From contig OZ253449.1 in NCBI GenBank assembly GCA_965261345.1, forward strand, positions 64,001 through 128,000: a DNA stretch of 64,000 nt, written 5' to 3'. The notes beneath the pieces are model-generated. The model was not told the DNA's origin. It worked only from the letters and a program-made list of their open reading frames with translations, and ran no database searches. Each line of letters starts with the position of its first letter. The first letter of the stretch is position 1. Shown one piece after another: positions 46,171 to 62,475 of this stretch. Position numbers and translations under genes: made by a program. This DNA is from Chloroflexota bacterium (GTDB lineage Bacteria; Chloroflexota; UBA11872; VXNJ01).

Positions 46171-48092
46171 GAACAGCCAGGCAAACTGGAGTATGGACGC
46201 GGGTGAAAGTCCCGCTGGCAAAGGGCTGGCCGCCCATGCCGAACCGCGAGCCGTGCGCAGGCCGTCGCGAGACGGTCGGTGAAGCGTCGGTAGCGGGGCA
46301 TGCGGGCCGGGCTATCGAGCGCCGAAATACCGGTTCGGAGCGCCGAGACCGTGATTCTGGTCGAAGGCAACACCGACAGCGGCGATATTGGCAAGTCGCT
46401 GATCTGGGCTCCGCGGCGTCGAAGAACTCGCGCACGTATGCACGTCCATCCCCGGGACCTGGGAGACCTGTCCAGCGCCCCAACGCACTCGCAGCATTGG
46501 GGCCGCATCGGGAAGGAAGGAGTTTCGCAATCCGATGATGCACGCCGGACAGAAGTCTGATGCGGCCATAGTACCTGCGAAGGCGGCGAACAATGGGGCG
46601 TAAAACCCCGGCGGAGCCGCCGGAGGAAAGGGCCGCAAGCAAGAGGAACGCGCCAGGCACCGGCACGGACTACACCCAGGGGTGGGTTCCCGTGTCACCC
46701 GGAGCCGAACGCGTACGGCAACACGCCAAAGAGAACCCAGAGGGAAAACTCACCGCGCTCTTACACCACATAGACCTTGACGCGCTAAGGGATGCGTTCT
46801 ACGGGCTAAAACCCAATGCCGCTCCCGGCGCCGACGGGATCACGTGGAGGATGTACGAGGAAAACCTGGAAGAGAAACTTCTCGACCTTAAAGACCGCGT
46901 GCACAAAGGAGCATACCGAGCGACCCCCGTCCTGCGGGTAGCGATACCCAAACCGGACGGCGGGAAGCGAGCGCTTGGAATCGCATCCATAGAGGACAAG
47001 ATCCTGCAGCGGGCGGTGTGTCAACAGATCCTTGACCCGATCTATGAATCGGAGTTCGCCGGGTTCGCATACGGGTTCCGGCCAAAAAGATCAGCGCACG
47101 ACGCGCTGGACGCCCTGGCCTACGCCATCGAACGGAGAAAAGTCAACTGGATTCTTGACGCCGACATAAAAGGCTTCTTCGACCATCTCGACCGCGAGCG
47201 ACTCATCTCGTTCCTGGGAGAGCGAATCGGAGACAACCGCGTCCTGCGCCTAATCCGCAAATGGCTGAGCACCGGAGTAATGGAAGCCGGAGAACTATCC
47301 GACAGCGTGCAGGGAACACCGCAAGGGGCGCCGATATCGCCGCTGCTTGCCAACGTGTACCTGCACAAAGTCCTGGACTCATGGTTTGCCAAGGAATGGC
47401 GACCCAAAAGGGCCAGCGGCGAGGTCTACATCGTCAGGTATGCCGATGACTTCGTCCTGGGATTTGAGTACCGCAGCGATGCGGTCAGATTTGCAAAGGA
47501 TTTGCGAGACAGGCTAGAAGAGTACGGATTAGAGCTTGCAGCCCACAAGACCCGCCTGATCGAGTTCGGCAGATACGCGATCGAGAATCGCCGCCAGCGT
47601 AACGACAGCCGTCCGGAGACTTTTGACTTCCTCGGCCTAACGCATTACTGCCGGACGATGAGCAACGGAAAGTTCGGACTGGGACGCAAGCCCATCGCCA
47701 AGCGCGTCAGACGCACCCTGAAGGCGATCAAGGAACGACTACGCATGCGCATGCACGACGATCCCGCGCAGACCGGGCAATGGCTCGGGTTGGTGCTGCG
47801 GGGCTGGCTCGGCTATTACGCCGTCCCAACCAGCTCCACGTACCTGAGGAGTTTCAAATATGAACTCGAGCGCCAGTGGTTACGCAGCCTGCGCCGCCGG
47901 TCGCAGCATGATCGATTCCCATGGGGGCGCCTGCGCGCATTGAGCACTGCCCATCTCCCAACCGTCTCCATCCTCCACCCATGGCCCGCCGACCGTTTTG
48001 CCGTCAAACACTCAAGCTAAGAGCCCGGTGCGTTAACGCGCATGCCGGGATCCGTGCGGGGGGCACCGGGTAACCGGTGTTCCTACCGCGAA
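46171..48092 (+). mobile_element. Group II intron 1 (class E-like, RT without endonuclease)
   Basis: D5 GAGCCCGGTGCGTTAACGCGCATGCCGGGATC; D6 ending CCTACCGCGAA; EBS1 GATTCT (46353-46358) pairs with upstream AGAGTC. Confidence 0.92.
46593..48020 (+). CDS. ltrA: Group II intron reverse transcriptase/maturase
   Basis: IPKPDG..R.LGI, YGFRP, DIKGFFD, GTPQG..ISPLLAN, RYADDF, FDFLG. Confidence 0.95.
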   Translation: MGRKTPAEPPEERAASKRNAPGTGTDYTQGWVPVSPGAERVRQHAKENPEGKLTALLHHIDLDALRDAFYGLKPNAAPGADGITWRMYEENLEEKLLDLKDRVHKGAYRATPVLRVAIPKPDGGKRALGIASIEDKILQRAVCQQILDPIYESEFAGFAYGFRPKRSAHDALDALAYAIERRKVNWILDADIKGFFDHLDRERLISFLGERIGDNRVLRLIRKWLSTGVMEAGELSDSVQGTPQGAPISPLLANVYLHKVLDSWFAKEWRPKRASGEVYIVRYADDFVLGFEYRSDAVRFAKDLRDRLEEYGLELAAHKTRLIEFGRYAIENRRQRNDSRPETFDFLGLTHYCRTMSNGKFGLGRKPIAKRVRRTLKAIKERLRMRMHDDPAQTGQWLGLVLRGWLGYYAVPTSSTYLRSFKYELERQWLRSLRRRSQHDRFPWGRLRALSTAHLPTVSILHPWPADRFAVKHSS

Positions 48093-49728: not shown

Positions 49729-51657
49729 TTCGCGGTAGGAACACCGGTTACCCGGTGCCCCCCGCACGGATCCCGGCGTGCGCGTTAACGCACCGGGCTC
49801 TTAGCTTGAGTGTTTGACGGCAAAACGGTCGGCGGGCCATGGGTGGAGGATGGAGACGGTTGGGAGATGGGCAGTGCTCAATGCGCGCAGGCGCCCCCAT
49901 GGGAATCGATCATGCTGCGACCGGCGGCGCAGGCTGCGTAACCACTGGCGCTCGAGTTCATATTTGAAACTCCTCAGGTACGTGGAGCTGGTTGGGACGG
50001 CGTAATAGTTGAGCCAGCCCCGCAGCACCATCCCGAGCCATTGCCCGGTCTGCATCGGATCATCGTGCATGCGCATACGCAGCTTCTCTTTGATCGCCTT
50101 CAGGGTGCGTCTGACGCGCTTGGCGATGGGCTTGCGTCCCAGTCCGAACTTTCCGTTGCTCATCGTCCGGCAGTAATGCGTTAGGCCGAGGAAGTCAAAA
50201 GTCTCCGGCCGTCTTTCGCCTCGTTGGCGGCGGTTGTGCGCCGCTTGCCGGCCGAACTCGATCAGGCGGGTCTTGTGGGCTGCAAGCTCTAATCCGTACT
50301 CTTCTAGCCTGTCTCGCAAATCCTTTGCAAATCTGACCGCATCGCTGCGGTACTCAAATCCCAGGACGAAGTCATCGGCATACCTGACGATGTAGACCTC
50401 GCCGCTGGCCCTTTTGGGTCGCCATTCCTTGGCAAACCATGAGTCCAGGACTTTGTGCAGGTACACGTTGGCAAGCAGCGGCGATATCGGCGCCCCTTGC
50501 GGTGTTCCCTGCACGCTGTCGGATAGTTCTCCGGCTTCCATTACTCCGGTGCTCAGCCATTTGCGGATTAGGCGCAGGACGCGGTTGTCTCCGATTCGCT
50601 CTCCCAGGAACGAGATGAGTCGCTCGCGGTCGAGATGGTCGAAGAAGCCTTTTATGTCGGCGTCAAGAATCCAGTTGACTTTTCTCCGTTCGATGGCGTA
50701 GGCCAGGGCGTCCAGCGCGTCGTGCGCTGATCTTTTTGGCCGGAACCCGTATGCGAACCCGGCGAACTCCGATTCATAGATCGGGTCAAGGATCTGTTGA
50801 CACACCGCCCGCTGCAGGATCTTGTCCTCTATGGATGCGATTCCAAGCGCTCGCTTCCCGCCGTCCGGTTTGGGTATCGCTACCCGCAGGACGGGGGTCG
50901 CTCGGTATGCTCCTTTGTGCACGCGGTCTTTAAGGTCGAGAAGTTTCTCTTCCAGGTTTTCCTCGTACATCCTCCACGTGATCCCGTCGGCGCCGGGAGC
51001 GGCATTGGGTTTTAGCCCGTAGAACGCATCCCTTAGCGCGTCAAGGTCTATGTGGTGTAAGAGCGCGGTGAGTTTTCCCTCTGGGTTCTCTTTGGCGTGT
51101 TGCCGTACGCGTTCGGCTCCGGGTGACACGGGAACCCACCCCTGGGTGTAGTCCGTGCCGGTGCCTGGCGCGTTCCTCTTGCTTGCGGCCCTTTCCTCCG
51201 GCGGCTCCGCCGGGGTTTTACGCCCCATTGTTCGCCGCCTTCGCAGGTACTATGGCCGCATCAGACCCCTGTCCGGCGTGCATCATCGGCTACGGATACC
51301 TCCTTCCCGATGCGACCCCGGATCTGCGAGTGAACCGGGGTAATGCGCAGATCTCCCAGTTCCCGGCCCGGGACTTACGTACGTACATGAGTTCTTTGAC
51401 ACCGTCGAGCCCGGCTGACGGCTGGCCATCTATTGCCGCCGCCGGTGTTGCCTTCGACAAGATCAAGAGTCTCGGCGCTCGGGACAAACCCGATGTTTCG
51501 GTGCTCCATAGCTCTGTCCGCACGCTCCGCTGCCGACGCTTCACGGGTAACCTCGCGGTTACCCGCGCACGGCTCGCGGGCTGATGTGGGCTGGCTCTCG
51601 CCCTTCATCCCGGGAGACTTTCACTCCTTGTCCTGGTACCAGTTGGACTGGCTGTTC
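49729..51657 (-). mobile_element. Group II intron 2
   Basis: Near-identical D5/D6 to intron 1; EBS1 TGATCT (51460-51465, minus strand) pairs with upstream AGGTCA. Confidence 0.92.
49801..51228 (-). CDS. ltrA: Group II intron reverse transcriptase/maturase
   Basis: 475 aa, near-identical to 46593-48020 except a short divergent patch. Confidence 0.95.
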   Translation of the reverse strand: MGRKTPAEPPEERAASKRNAPGTGTDYTQGWVPVSPGAERVRQHAKENPEGKLTALLHHIDLDALRDAFYGLKPNAAPGADGITWRMYEENLEEKLLDLKDRVHKGAYRATPVLRVAIPKPDGGKRALGIASIEDKILQRAVCQQILDPIYESEFAGFAYGFRPKRSAHDALDALAYAIERRKVNWILDADIKGFFDHLDRERLISFLGERIGDNRVLRLIRKWLSTGVMEAGELSDSVQGTPQGAPISPLLANVYLHKVLDSWFAKEWRPKRASGEVYIVRYADDFVLGFEYRSDAVRFAKDLRDRLEEYGLELAAHKTRLIEFGRQAAHNRRQRGERRPETFDFLGLTHYCRTMSNGKFGLGRKPIAKRVRRTLKAIKEKLRMRMHDDPMQTGQWLGMVLRGWLNYYAVPTSSTYLRSFKYELERQWLRSLRRRSQHDRFPWGRLRALSTAHLPTVSILHPWPADRFAVKHSS

Positions 51658-57765: not shown

Positions 57766-57793
57766 AATGAAGCTCATAGGGATTACGTCTAGT
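57766..57793 (+). other. dif-like site
   Basis: AATGAAGCTCA-TAGGGA-TTACGTCTAGT. Confidence 0.65.
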
Positions 57794-58128
57794 AGTGATC
57801 ATCGCTCGGCTTTAGCCACGGGTCAATCTGCTGGGTGCGAGCGTGCGGCACCTATGGATGGCATTGAGCCGCTGTCCGCCTGTCGGACGAGCGATTGTTT
57901 TTACTTGGTGAGATATTGTTTCCGCATCACCACACGACTTGCTCCCGACGGTGGGGCCACGATATTTGGTGTGCGCAATCCGGTCGGAAGTTTTTCGACA
58001 ACATCATATCGTGCATCAACGGATCTAAGCCTGCTTTGTTTGGATCGCAAATCTGATACCCTCGATAACCCGGCAATCAATGACGCACGGCGTGAGATTC
58101 ATATCCACCAATTAACTGAAGAATTCAA

Positions 58129-58374
58129 ATGTCGGAGGACAGCAACCGTCACGTGGTCACTAATCCTGAAGGTGGGTGGGATGTCGTCAAGCCGAACGCG
58201 GATCGGTCGTCAGCTTATCTGCAAACGCAAGCTGATGCGGTTGAGCTCACGCGCGAAATCGTAGAGAACTTTGGCGGGGGCGAAGTCGTGATTCACCGCC
58301 GCGATGGCCGGATCCGGGATTCCGATACAGTTCCGCCCGGGAACGACCCTAACCCGCCACGCGACTCTCGTTAA
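58129..58374 (+). CDS. DUF2188 family protein
   Basis: RHVV....GGW.V.....R.S....TQ.DA...EVVIH..DGRIRDSDT. Confidence 0.85.
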   Translation: MSEDSNRHVVTNPEGGWDVVKPNADRSSAYLQTQADAVELTREIVENFGGGEVVIHRRDGRIRDSDTVPPGNDPNPPRDSR

Positions 58375-58635
58375 TCGGTCGCCAATTAGAAGTGCCGAGT
58401 GACTAACCTAGCGGCTGAGATTCGGTAGTGACATTGGTCTGCCGACTCTCGGCGAATCTGTCAGAGTGATGGGCCAGTTCGAACTGGAGCAATCCTATTG
58501 GCTGGTTTCCTTGCAGGCGGTGGCATTCGTGCGTGAACGGATCGTTTCTGCGCCGGCCCTTTCGCCGAATTGAATCAATTGTGGTTGAGGTGAACCGATT
58601 CAACGGCAAGTCGCGATTCGAGCCGAGAGATCCAC

Positions 58636-59553
58636 TTGGGACAACATAAAAACCCACAAGAGTATTGGCGGCATTTCGGGAGTCCACCCGGCAAACGCAT
58701 GATCTGGCAATTTGACACGAAAATTCTGAAATATTCCAATCGCCCAATTCCAATCAAGAATGTCGCGCAAGCACGCAATTACTATTCGCCAGTTGACGAA
58801 AAAATGCTGGCTGAATTGATTGAAGCTCCTGCCCACGGGCCACTAAACAAGCTCCGCAACCGAGAGGACCTTAACCCCGACGATCGCTCGAGCGTTGCGT
58901 GGTACATAAACGCGATGGTTCGGCGGGGGCCGCGCGCCCGAAATCATTTGCTGGAAGTATTACCAACCGAATTCAGCGCCTATCGTAAACGACTAATTGC
59001 AAATCTCGACCAGATGATTGAGCGGTACGGACATACCAGTGCCGAATGGATCAACGCACTTGATCAATTGAGTGAACGCATCCTTCGCGGCGACGTTTCT
59101 GACAAGGACGACTTAATCAGGTCGCAGTATTTGGTGGGAAAAGTCGCACTTGCCGTCTTTCATATGCAATGGGTGATAGTCCATTCGAATCGAACTGGTG
59201 AGTTCATAACCAATGACAACCCGGTGTTTTTTACTGAAGGGATCGGCTTGGGGCACCCACAAGCAGAATTGACTCTTCCGCTGTCGCCGCGCACGGCGTT
59301 GCATGCGTCGTGGCGAGGACGGGAATTCGGGCTCGAACATGCATCAGCGACTCAAAATCAACTGGTGAAAGAGATTAATCGACGGACGGTATATGTTGCG
59401 GATCGCATGTTGTACTCACGCGGTAAGCACGATTGGTTAGCGGCAATCGCCGCAAAAAAGCCAAATGTCTTGCTGAAGCCCCTGTACTTTGGACATCCTG
59501 GATTCCAACCAGTTGAAATCCCGGACGAGGACCAATATGCTAGCGTGATTTGA
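58636..59553 (+). CDS. DUF4238 family protein
   Basis: H..PQ.Y.R.F N-terminus; FITNDNPV...LPLSPR motif. Confidence 0.75.
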   Translation: MGQHKNPQEYWRHFGSPPGKRMIWQFDTKILKYSNRPIPIKNVAQARNYYSPVDEKMLAELIEAPAHGPLNKLRNREDLNPDDRSSVAWYINAMVRRGPRARNHLLEVLPTEFSAYRKRLIANLDQMIERYGHTSAEWINALDQLSERILRGDVSDKDDLIRSQYLVGKVALAVFHMQWVIVHSNRTGEFITNDNPVFFTEGIGLGHPQAELTLPLSPRTALHASWRGREFGLEHASATQNQLVKEINRRTVYVADRMLYSRGKHDWLAAIAAKKPNVLLKPLYFGHPGFQPVEIPDEDQYASVI

Positions 59554-59650
59554 GCTCAAATCCGAACGGCGCAGCCTAGTGCAACGAAGTGAAATGCCGC
59601 AACGAACCGCGTCATCTGAACTTTCGATTGGTCCTCAGCAGACAGCGTCC

Positions 59651-59672
59651 GTTTTTCATAATCGCAATTATG
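59651..59672 (+). other. dif-like site split by intron 3 (remainder at 61597-61602)
   Basis: GTTTTTCATAA-TCGCAA-TTATG|intron|TCTTGC. Confidence 0.8.
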
Positions 59673-61596
59673 GAACAGCCAGGCTAACTGGCATGGGACA
59701 GGGGTGCAAGTCCCCCGTGCTGTAAAGAAGGGAGCCATTCTGCAGCACTCTGCGAGTCATGCGCTGATCGCCGCGAGGCGGTTGGTGAAGCGTTGACAGC
59801 AGCGCGTGTGGGCGGGGCGATCGAGCGCCGCAACCTTTACATTCCGGAGCGCCGAGGCTTTCATATTGGTCGAAGGCAACACCTGCTGCGACGACAAATG
59901 GCCAGTCGCAGTTTGGGCTCCGCGGCGTCAAAGAACCCAGGCACGCACGTACGTCTCCTGCCGGGACCTGGGAGATCTGCCAGGTGCCCCGCCATCTCGC
60001 ACGACGGGGCCGCATCGGGGAGGGAGGCAACCGTAGCTGATGATGCACGCCGGGCAGAAGTCTGACGCGGCCGTAGTAGCTGTGAAGTCGGCGAACAAGG
60101 GAGAGCGATCTCCGGCGGAGTCGATAGAGCCAAGGGCCGCGACCAAGAGAAATCCGCAACGCCCGGCACGGGCCGAACCCAGAGTCGGGTAACCGTGTCA
60201 CTCGGAGCCGAGCGGATACGGCAATACGTTAAGGCAAATCCCGGAGGAAAACTCACCGCGCTCCTGCACCACTTAACCCCCGAAACGCTCTTTGCGGCCT
60301 ACTTTGCGCTCAAGCCGAACGCGGCCCCCGGCGCCGACGGGATAACGTGGCAGATGTACGGGGAAGGACTGACAGATAACCTGTCCGGCCTTCACCAACG
60401 CTTGCACAAAGGAGCGTACCGGGCGGCCCCCGTCCTAAGGGTGGAAATACCCAAACCGGACGGCGGAGTGCGAAAGCTCGGAATCGCATCCCTGGAAGAC
60501 AAAATCCTCCAGCGGGCGGTGACAGACAACCTCCTGAACCCGATCTACGAATCGGAGTTCGCGGGATTTAGCTACGGGTTCAGGCCCAATCGCTCAGCCC
60601 ACGATGCGCTGGACGCGCTCGCCTACGTAATAGGGCAACGCCGGGTCAACTGGGTAGCTGAGGTGGACATCAAGGGGTTCTTCGACAATATCGATCGGGA
60701 ACAGCTAATGGCGTTCCTGCAAGATCGCATCGCAGACCGCAGAGTCCTGCGCCTCATCCGAAAGTGGCTCGCCGCCGGTGTCCTTGACAACGGACTAAAG
60801 GTCGACCCCGCACGGGGCACACCGCAGGGAGCGCCGATATCGCCGCTGCTTGCCAACGTGTACCTGCTTGGGTGGGCTCGACCAATGGTTCGCGCGACAG
60901 TGGCGGCCGCAGAAAGCCATCGGCCAGGCCTACATGGTCAGATACGCCGATGACTTCGTACTGGGATTTGAGCACCGCCAAGATGCGGAGAGGTTCCTTA
61001 GGGACCTAGAGGAGCGGTTCACGAAATACGGACTGGAGTTGCACCCCGAGAAGACGCGCCTGATCGAGTTCGGCAAAAACGCGGCGCGTAACCACCGCCG
61101 GAGAGGCGAGCGACGACCGGAGACCTTTGACTTCCTCGGTCTGACGCACTACTGCCGAACGACTCGAACCGGACGCTTCGGACTGGGACGCAAGCCATCG
61201 TCCAAACGCGTTCGCCGCACCCTGAATGCGTTAAAGAACGCGCTGCGCTGGCGCATGCACGACGATCCGGTGGAAACCGGTCAATGGCTCGGAAGAGTAC
61301 TTCGTGGCTGGCTCGGCTACTACGCCGTCCCCACAAGCTACAAATCCCTGGACCAGTTCAAGCGCGCCCTGCAGTGGCTTTGGCTCCGCACTCTGCGCCG
61401 CCAGTCGCAAACCGCAAACTTTGCGTGGGAGCGGCTAGAAGCGATGTGTGAACAGCTTTGGCCCCGCATCCGCATCATCCACCCATGGCCCGCCACACGC
61501 TTTGCCGTCACCCACTCAAGGTAAGAGCCGGATGCGCTAACGCGCACGTCCGGATCCGTGCGGGGGGAGATCGGTAACGATCTTCCCTACCGCGAA
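59673..61596 (+). mobile_element. Group II intron 3
   Basis: Starts GAACAGCCAGG; D5 GAGCCGGATGCGCTAACGCGCACGTCCGGATC; ends CCTACCGCGAA. Confidence 0.92.
60195..61524 (+). pseudogene. ltrA: Intron RT/maturase, frameshifted near 60870
   Basis: RT motifs up to ISPLLANVYL in one frame; RYADDF and domain X in another. Confidence 0.88.
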
Positions 61597-61687
61597 TCTT
61601 GCTCCATTAATCGCGTAGCGCAGATTTGGCCAGCTTGCGTCCCGGGTTCGAGAGCAATCGCTCCGGTGAATCAATTCGCGATCGGAA

Positions 61688-62026
61688 TCAAACCTTTTCG
61701 ACAATCGCAACCGACCTAACTTCAAGTTGCACGCCCTCGTGTTCTTGGATTTGGTTAATCACTTCGAACAGGTTTTTGGCATGCGGGTTGCCATTCGATC
61801 CGAACATGCGCATTAGGCTCTTGGGCGATTTATGCGTGCGAGCGCCCAGTTCCTCAAACCCTATAGTGGCGTTTATGTAATCGCGCAGTAGGACTTTCCC
61901 TGCGTCGATTTCTCCGCCCAGCAAACATTGGACGCCCTCGTTCAATAACCCTTCCCGAAACAAGGGATCGACTATTGCCCGGGCTTGCACCGTTTCCTTG
62001 AATTCACGCGTAAGAGCCACTCTCAT
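61688..62026 (-). CDS. Addiction-module antidote (HTH DNA-binding)
   Basis: ALTREFKETVQAR...LLRDYINATIGFE.L...KSLMRM....GNP...NLF. Confidence 0.85.
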   Translation of the reverse strand: MRVALTREFKETVQARAIVDPLFREGLLNEGVQCLLGGEIDAGKVLLRDYINATIGFEELGARTHKSPKSLMRMFGSNGNPHAKNLFEVINQIQEHEGVQLEVRSVAIVEKV

Positions 62027-62349
62027 TCCCTCCGATTTCGATTCCTGAAATCCTGCCAATTCGCTTTGGCCGTCGCAATGTCTGATTGCTGGCGCGCCTT
62101 AGTGCCTCCGCCGAGCAAAATGACCACCGTTTTCCCTTCACGACCGAAATAAATCCTGTAGCCAGGACCAGTATGGATGCGGAATTCCGTTACTCCGCCG
62201 CCAACTCCCTTCGTATTTGAGAGGTTGCCAGTGGCCATTCTGGTTAATCCGGTTGTGATCTTTATTGCTGCCTGGGAATCCAGCCCTGCGAACCATCGGC
62301 CGAATGGACTCCGACCCGTATCGTCCAAGTATTCGCGAAGCTCAGACAT
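62023..62349 (-). CDS. RelE/ParE-family addiction-module toxin
   Basis: G.SPF..WF..L...GN....K.VG.GV.E.RI..GPGYRIYFG...LLGGG.K..Q..DI. Confidence 0.9.
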   Translation of the reverse strand: MSELREYLDDTGRSPFGRWFAGLDSQAAIKITTGLTRMATGNLSNTKGVGGGVTEFRIHTGPGYRIYFGREGKTVVILLGGGTKARQQSDIATAKANWQDFRNRNRRE

Positions 62350-62447: not shown

Positions 62448-62475
62448 GTTCGACCTAATCGCCATTATGTCTTGT
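62448..62475 (+). other. dif-like site
   Basis: GTTCGACCTAA-TCGCCA-TTATGTCTTGT. Confidence 0.85.

Follow-up and report, generated by a model that had tools for sequence, protein, structure and literature searches.

A group II intron inserted within an arm of a dif-like site in a Chloroflexota bacterium, and a candidate preference of its clade for Xer-type sites

Does a group II intron that interrupts a dif-like recombination site lie there by accident, or does it belong to a lineage that prefers such sites? The question is raised by a locus in a 64,000-nt stretch of a Chloroflexota bacterium (hereafter the window), which corresponds to positions 64001–128000 of a genome consisting of a single 2.39-Mb contig (OZ253449.1, assembly GCA_965261345.1; genome G000 below). 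The intron, L001 in our locus numbering, occupies window positions 59673–61596. The original prediction, made from the letters alone, placed it precisely within the conserved arm of a dif-like site and regarded it as a possible analogue of the IIC-attC introns, which target integron attC sites. Here, we confirm the insertion and favor, with moderate confidence, the reading that L001 belongs to a small RF02005-class clade that is no longer active and that preferred the palindromic core of Xer-type sites.

The element is a group II intron of 1,924 nt on the + strand, with the termini GAACAG...CGCGAA. Its domain I core (59707–59937, + strand) matched the Rfam model RF02005 (group-II-D1D4-6) over the full model (1–225 of 225) with 154.1 bits (E 2.6e-44, gathering threshold 49). 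The catalytic hairpin of domain V and the branch helix of domain VI with its bulged A (61523–61597, + strand) matched RF00029 with 40.1 bits at a gathering threshold of 40; this match extends 1 nt into the exon, and the bulged branch adenosine could be read off the sequence. Domain V (61525–61556) is 2 nt under the Rfam consensus, as two gap columns in the RF00029 alignment show, both of them in the apical stem. The junctions read ...GTTTTTCATAA TCGCAA TTATG | GAACAG...CGCGAA | TCTTGC..., just as claimed. The RF02005 matches in the window correspond to three group II introns, L001 included.

The boundaries could be fixed by comparison within the genome, where the intron family is represented by nine full-length copies and two fragments. 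All nine full copies start with GAAC[A/G]GCCAG and end with CCUACCG[C/U]GAA. For two sister subfamilies, uninterrupted paralogous targets were found: a site in orfA of an IS3-type insertion sequence (IS), GCCCGAACAGATCA|TCAACAAGCTCCGG, exact at no fewer than six places in the genome, and an IS110-type site, with two mismatches, at two places. The family boundaries of L001 are therefore exact. Contigs of the likely source sample bridge the L001 junctions, one of them the 5′ and another the 3′ junction. Furthermore, a paralogue of the L001 5′ flank reads ...CATAATCGCAATTATGTCgatt at genome position 190962 as part of an intact site, CATAA-TCGCAA-TTATGTCgatt; it is identical to the 5′ flank for 28 nt and then continues with TC. 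Since this near-identical upstream copy runs into an intact site, it supports TTATG|TC as the insertion point. The exact joined 28-mer in uninterrupted form gave no match in the genome at up to three mismatches. Taken together, the results confirm that L001 is a group II intron and that it interrupts a bona fide dif-like site precisely at TTATG|TC.

The split site has an 11-6-11 architecture with inverted inner motifs, GTTTTTCATAA-TCGCAA-TTATG[intron]TCTTGC. Its left arm GTTTTTCATAA lies at 59651–59661, the central region TCGCAA at 59662–59667 and TTATG at 59668–59672, and the outer hexamer TCTTGC, which completes the right arm, is displaced to 61597–61602 (all on the + strand). Only these 6 nt of one arm are displaced; the inner core CATAA-TCGCAA-TTATG stands untouched beside the intron. 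The same right arm occurs intact as TTATGTCTTGT at 767–777 and 62465–62475, in the sites GGGTAAATTAC-TAATGA-TTATGTCTTGT (750–777, + strand) and GTTCGACCTAA-TCGCCA-TTATGTCTTGT (62448–62475, + strand, the next intact dif-like site), and the two arms used for comparison in the original prediction were indeed found, with ATTATGTCTTG uninterrupted at 766 and 62464. When one mismatch was allowed, ATTATGTCTTG was found six times in the window, always on the + strand (0.46 expected), and CATAA-N6-TTATG likewise six times (0.63 expected); with neither pattern did any of 100 shuffles reach six. The hexamer ATTATG is present in the window 20 times on the + and five times on the − strand. Genome-wide, ATTATGTC occurs 35 times on the + and 17 times on the − strand, and 23 of the 35 fall within the first 250 kb.

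These sites belong to arrays around a presumed chromosomal dif. A perfect 11-6-11 palindrome, ATTAGACATAA-TCATTA-TTATGTCTAAT, is located at genome position 1571. Cumulative GC skew is lowest at 1.18 Mb and highest over a plateau that starts at about 2.28 Mb, crosses the contig ends and stops at about 0.12 Mb; since the palindrome sits on this plateau, we place it at the presumed terminus. Its core is conserved across four genomes, exactly in G000, G003 and G006 and with a single mismatch in G005. In five genomes of the genus, we counted the pattern ATAA-N6-TTATGTC with up to one mismatch against a reversed-pattern control, and all five showed enrichment: 47 matches versus 8 in G000, 34 versus 2 in G003, 25 versus 0 in G006, 21 versus 5 in G002 and 14 versus 4 in G005. 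In G003, sites found on a single strand near dif all point one way on each side (left, 4/4 on the − strand; right, 7/7 on the + strand). Of the two arms, the right one (A-TTATGTC-N-A) is conserved, in contrast to a degenerate left arm. Two types of central region recur, TCGCNA and NAATGA. Polarized arrays flank dif at 1–220 kb and 2.34–2.39 Mb of G000 and at 1.68–1.79 Mb of G003. Far from dif, a low-G+C island of G000 (1.295–1.34 Mb) contains a second such site cluster, which also holds the intron fragments L010 and L011. The open reading frames (ORFs) between the window sites are mostly of toxin-antitoxin or defense type (HicB, PIN, Phd/YefM, HigB, RelB, TacA/GNAT; also HEPN/MNT, DUF433/DUF5615, GmrSD and a UvrD-like helicase), and IS elements are found there too. 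The genome encodes only two tyrosine recombinases (PF00589), and the models on which they score highest are those of XerD and XerC, which makes them Xer-like. They scored 64.2 and 58 bits on the integron-integrase model, with a cut-off of 265, so neither of the two is an integron integrase, and the sites are not attC. Judged from its sequence, the locus is fairly described as a dif-like site of a cassette array.

We then asked how far base pairing between intron and exon accounts for this location. By homology, the exon-binding site 1 (EBS1) is formed by the last 6 nt of the 8-nt loop in the hairpin CCGAG...CGAAGGCAAC. In 11 of the 14 family copies with a readable domain Id (D1d), these 6 nt pair 6/6 with the final hexamer of the exon, over seven different targets, and this covariation identifies the loop CATATT of L001 (59862–59867, + strand) as its EBS1. 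The corresponding intron-binding site (IBS1) is ATTATG, the final 6 nt before the intron, and pairing is 5/6, with a U.U mismatch at −5 (CAUAUU vs. AUUAUG); with this, every sequence statement of the original prediction was verified. The two other exceptions are copies in IS3 orfA, with 2/6 and 3/6 pairs. An EBS2-type pairing (5–7 bp, spacer of 0–3 nt) was found in 9 of the 14 copies; among the same 14 it was not seen in L001, in three C-type copies or in a chimera with a C-type EBS2 loop. At the position where sister copies have EBS2, L001 carries the loop CAACCTTTACATT (59831–59843, + strand), whose longest helix with its own exon is 3 bp, and a cognate target predicted from this loop yielded no convincing site in the genome. 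With wobble pairs allowed, 44,183 genome positions pair with the L001 EBS1 as well as or better than the real site, so RNA pairing alone leaves the location unexplained. The two IS3 orfA exceptions, at genome positions 135869–137800 (− strand) and 1585797–1587723 (+ strand), are recombinants that combine the 5′ end of one subfamily with the EBS1 of another, and one of them also has the EBS2 loop of the other subfamily.

The evidence that carries our reading comes from the closest relatives of L001. We searched for relatives in the family, the order and a phylum sample, the queries being RF02005, the complete intron, its 5′-terminal 528 nt and its 3′-terminal 217 nt, and the intron family turned out to be almost confined to this genus. 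L024, a 5′ fragment of about 170–190 nt on the − strand of G003 (1784538–1784691), groups with L001 with a support of 0.909 and an identity of 71.8%, vs. at most 64.8% to others. Its exon reads gctcGACATAA-TTGCAA-ATACG|GAATGG; on the + strand this is intron-CGTAT-TTGCAA-TTATGTCGAGC (in longer form TTATGTCGAGCGT), of which 19 nt are identical to the G000 site at 96982. L024 lies inside the +-oriented array to the right of the G003 dif, in the degenerate opposite arm and antisense to the array, and its junction is again 5 nt past the 6-nt central region. L010, a 155-nt 3′ fragment on the − strand of G000 (1304921–1305075) within the second site cluster, groups with L001 with a support of 0.883 and an identity of 79.0%, vs. 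at most 72.6%. It is followed by TTCAATGGCTG, to be compared with the site TTATG-TTCAATGG (...TTATGTTCAATGG) at 214743. A fourth, highly decayed remnant lies to the left of dif on the − strand of G000 (2379885), with an orthologue in G002 (1610939), and reads ggaagTAA-TAGGGA-TTACG|GATTAGCCAGGCTAATTGGCAGATGG (GTAA-TAGGGA-TTACG|GATTAGCCAGGCTAATTGG); the central region TAGGGA of its site is also found in intact form at window 57780–57793. The insertion point is identical to the nucleotide in L001, L024 and this 2.38-Mb remnant. Since members share the position 5 nt 3′ of the central region, counted on the intron-bearing strand and in either arm, we read the pattern as a preference of the clade.

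Other searches drew in little more. The junction pattern TAYGGAWYRGCCAG, run over the order, gave 23 matches against 5 for the control; among the 17 that we read, 15 were unrelated genes or tRNA-like sequence, and beyond L001 and L024 only the G000/G002 remnant was intron-like. The closest full-length relative in an order-wide DNA search of 57 genomes is 77% identical and belongs to G002, where it occupies an unrelated target, GCATATTTCA|CCAGCC. No other copy with the L001 EBS1 in its hairpin context was found, the scan of genome contigs giving one match that is not an intron. A distant search of a plasmid collection returned 981 records, the 12 listed being about 64–65% identical; no record covers at least 80% of the query, and no clade member was found among them. 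The exon of L152, a 3′ fragment in G005, was uninterpretable.

In the mechanism that we propose, L001 would be an endonuclease-less group II retroelement that was reverse-spliced into one DNA strand of a Xer-type site, between the inner arm motif TTATG and the outer arm TCTTGC. Its clade would have preferred the CATAA-N6-TTATG core of the Xer sites that flank the chromosomal dif in polarized arrays, and this preference would be a property of the intron ribonucleoprotein. EBS1 probably recognizes a short IBS1 (A-W-T-A-Y-G), and extra specificity may come from something other than EBS2, either protein or the DNA state at Xer sites near the terminus. Displacement of the outer 6 nt of the arm by 1.9 kb would probably weaken the binding of one recombinase and make the site a weaker one. 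A bolder version, which we offer tentatively and hold to be somewhat doubtful, is that the GAACAG...GAA lineage homes into the inner core of Xer/dif-like sites, in either arm, as a fourth target specificity, and that the split arm alters which cassettes recombine.

Several observations weigh against a preference for Xer-type sites. The clade has one full-length member, no active copy was found, and the preference would rest on three or four old events. The arm-like exon of L010 is only 8 nt long, and the search that brought up the fourth remnant was biased, its pattern already requiring TAYG beside the intron start. No intron, and no EBS1 hairpin motif, was found in the 80 metagenome loci examined of at least 119 matching GCCAGKSNARCTGGN{4,5}GGAC, a pattern that was too loose. 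With an EBS1 pairing of 5/6 and no EBS2 pairing seen, the known RNA-guided mechanism is undemonstrated for L001; moreover, the two chimeric copies in IS3 orfA indicate that D1d can be swapped after insertion. Both tyrosine recombinases stay below the NCBIfam cut-offs for XerC and XerD (top models XerD, 210 bits with a cut-off of 329.6, and XerC, 143.1 bits with a cut-off of 335.15). Finally, the arrays are dispensable DNA near the terminus, rich in mobile elements, where insertions survive.

The last point leads to the strongest alternative, a one-off ectopic retrotransposition in which a short, U-rich EBS1 tolerated ATTATG, the sites of the relatives being coincidence or survival in dispensable DNA; in a 62% G+C genome, AT-rich hexamers would concentrate in dif-like sites anyway. 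The imperfect EBS1 pairing without a visible EBS2 fits this view, as do the IS elements and other introns that crowd the arrays and the fact that 16 of the 204 ATTATG hexamers in the genome (8%) have CATAA at the symmetric place, a number that rises to 31 of 204 with up to one mismatch. However, the L024 exon ends in AATACG rather than ATTATG and nevertheless has GACATAA at the symmetric place, where CATAA is expected by chance at 2.4e-4 per position. Read as a measure of chance, the figure of only 16 in 204 also counts for our reading. Nor does an accident readily explain why L001, L024 and the 2.38-Mb remnant share one insertion point to the nucleotide, why all three clade members from unbiased searches are consistent with dif-like flanks, or why this site was used when 44,183 others pair at least as well. 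We therefore regard a one-off event as rather unlikely.

A single ancient insertion, after which the site and its intron were copied or moved as a unit by array recombination, would explain the shared position by common descent without any targeting. Every member is decayed, one remnant is orthologous in two species, the 1.8 kb upstream of L001 are a near-identical duplicate ending at the site, and a contig from sequencing run X11 contains the intron and core but not the sequence upstream of 59657; all this would suit such a history. The copies themselves speak for separate insertions: their central regions differ (TCGCAA, TTGCAA, TAGGGA), as do the outer arms and 3′ exons (TCTTGC vs. TTCAAT), and L024 sits in the opposite arm and in the other orientation relative to its local array. 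In addition, the intron copies diverge by 21–28%. Descent from one insertion thus appears quite improbable. The weakest alternative takes the motif for a promoter with a leaderless start (a TATAAT-like box and then ATG TCT...) and the intron for an insertion at the 5′ end of a small gene; ATTATGTC does hold ATG plus a Ser codon, and CATAAT does resemble a −10 box, but we rejected it as barely credible because the ORFs opened by these ATGs span 1–113 aa, 19 of 20 being no longer than 55 aa, so that the ATTATGs are not gene starts, and because the best copy of the motif, at the skew terminus, is perfectly palindromic (11-6-11) and shared by four genomes, with arrays mirror-polarized around it.

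How does a clade preferring Xer-type sites compare with known systems? Three target specificities are described for bacterial group II introns in the review PMC4424553, namely homing sites, terminators and attC. The IIC-attC introns (e.g., S.ma.I2; same source) resemble L001 in being endonuclease-less and in occupying a fixed position in recombination sites of cassette arrays; furthermore, among solved structures the intron-encoded protein of the L001 family is nearest to IIC reverse transcriptases (RTs), with E values of 6.9e-46 for 7uim and 4.3e-40 for 6ar1 as compared to 1e-33 for LtrA. This closeness leaves the class unsettled, since other classes are without solved structures, and our literature search found no paper mapping RF02005 to an intron class (A–F). 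The differences are substantial. The sites here are dif-like 11-6-11 sites, not attC, and no integron integrase accompanies them; the L001 RNA belongs to RF02005, and its family shows EBS2 pairing in 9 of 14 copies; introns of the L001 clade are found in both arms and both orientations, and the termini are GAACAG...GAA. According to PMC3753933 and PMC4424553, class C RNA lacks EBS2 and targets a DNA stem-loop plus a short IBS1. The hairpin of the L001 site is weak (−2.6 kcal/mol, z −1.4; 24 of 200 shuffles fold as well), and we rejected a IIC-like stem-loop target for L001; for the L024 exon no hairpin was predicted. Given the EBS2-type pairing in most copies, the weak hairpin and sites that are not attC, L001 is not an IIC-attC intron. 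The original idea of an analogue is right in spirit, in that L024, L010 and the older remnant abut dif-like sequence at the same position, and wrong in mechanism.

Other systems share parts of this picture. Members of the IS1202 family (ISAjo2 group), which target pdif/dif sites (PMC10132070), are a transposon precedent, being mobile elements whose insertion point is fixed with respect to a Xer site; unlike L001, an RNA-guided retroelement inside the arm, 5 nt from the central region, they are DNA transposons beside the site. The IMEX arrays at dif and the dif modules of Acinetobacter likewise have several dif-like sites near or around dif that bound accessory modules, toxin-antitoxin genes included; the arrays described here differ in being chromosomal, extending over about 200 kb on the window side, mirror-polarized around dif and in a different lineage. 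Full-text searches brought up no paper whose title or abstract connects group II introns with dif or Xer sites, which suggests that a target preference for Xer sites has so far gone undescribed for such introns.

The termini set the family apart from its nearest canonical relatives. The consensus of group II introns is 5′ GUGYG...AY 3′ (PMC4424553), and canonical splice sites are also reported for IIE and IIF introns (PMC3753933). RF02005 introns elsewhere, such as that of the Burkholderia cenocepacia plasmid pBCJ2315, have the same domain I architecture and the same CCRGG...CCYGG hairpin right after the 5′ terminus, and the pBCJ2315 RT gene is about 64% identical at the DNA level. In L177 (G062), L178 (G098), L176 (G189) and the B. 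cenocepacia plasmid, GUGCG or GUGUG precedes this hairpin, whereas the family of this genus has GAACAG in place of GUGCG and ends in GAA, not AY. Two further loci, in the unpublished genomes G095 and G193, were left out of this comparison. All nine full copies depart from the consensus, with GAAC[A/G]G...G[C/T]GAA. The family has nonetheless been mobile, as follows from many exact homing events, EBS1 covariation and empty targets.

The L001 copy itself is decayed in its protein-coding part. Its ribozyme is apparently intact as judged by the RF02005 score, which is on a par with that of its active-looking sisters (154 bits, other full copies having 142–165 bits). The RT/maturase gene in domain IV survives as a remnant at 60100–61518 (+ strand) in the frames 60100–60153, 60138–60866 and 60877–61518, broken by two frameshifts near 60140–60153 and 60867–60877, with the YADD motif still readable. 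Both pieces match RVT_1, and the remnant is 65–68% identical (tblastn) to an intact 475-aa paralogue that matches TIGR04416 (group II RT/maturase) with 344.1 bits at a cut-off of 300. Contigs of run X5, from another study, span both frameshift places gap-free, so the frameshifts are not assembly errors. All other clade members are decayed as well.

Variants of L001 with about 99% identity are present in contigs of runs from three other studies; no RNA run was among the runs holding the L001 stretch. The match between the 522-nt contig of run X11 and the window starts only at 59657, where the C of CATAA lies, and the first 462 nt of this contig have no match within 59300–59656; this fits either a second insertion at the same core or an exchange of the left partner at the border of arm and central region. 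The empty-site joint 59672->61597 was not seen among the contig joints listed for the sequencing runs. One contig each of runs X5 and X7, from different studies, carries the joint 59693->61562, with 1,868 nt missing between intron position 21 and a point 35 nt short of the 3′ end and with a shorter side of 28 nt; it suggests an internally deleted derivative that would leave a 56-nt mini-remnant in the site, and such short-sided metagenome joints may come from other organisms or repeats.

The surroundings of the split site are cassettes and further introns. The upstream cassette (57845–59672, + strand), with a DUF4238 gene at 58636–59553, is duplicated at genome positions 189140–190967; the duplicate, 1,828 nt with two differences, ends on the right exactly at an intact dif-like site, and its left end is at no recognizable site. 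One upstream cassette is thereby joined to two different downstream sequences at a dif-like site, which is indirect evidence for Xer recombination. The downstream cassette (61688–62349, − strand) comprises a gene for a RelE/ParE-family toxin (62023–62349; TIGR02683, 100.7 bits, cut-off 62.85) and an adjacent 123-aa ORF (61688–62059). Two sister introns lie in the window: one of subfamily C with the intact 475-aa RT (46171–48092, + strand), inserted after ...GTAGAGAGTC, and one at the start of an IS3-type orfA (49729–51657, − strand), whose 5′ part is of subfamily B and whose 3′ part is C-type; an RT segment is identical between the two.

Elsewhere, IS110-family transposase genes carry one subfamily in their C-terminal part, in antisense orientation (...KPKKVALTACMRKL when the opposite strand is read), at genome positions 269286–271216, 819310–821234 and 1299453–1299578; because of this orientation, these introns cannot be spliced from the transposase mRNA. 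G003 contains a twintron (L200/L203/L205, 806436–810285) in which one member (807905–809833) is inserted into the RT gene of another at the ETFDFLGL codons, and the EBS1 UUAGGC and EBS2 AGGAA of the inner intron match the target encoding ETFDFLGL. The same genome has an ORF-less family member of about 694 nt (L019/L204, 352569–353262), with perfect pairing of EBS1 (6 bp) and EBS2 (7 bp) to the exon.

If the clade is indeed tied to Xer sites, it would represent a new target specificity and a second independent case of introns parasitizing the recombination sites of cassette arrays, and L001 would offer a natural way to probe which functions a Xer site keeps after one of its arms is split. Independently of this, the family is an example of mobile group II introns in which the GUGYG terminus has been replaced, a finding relevant to 5′ splice site recognition, and the polarized dif-like arrays with toxin-antitoxin and defense cassettes around dif are worth study in their own right.

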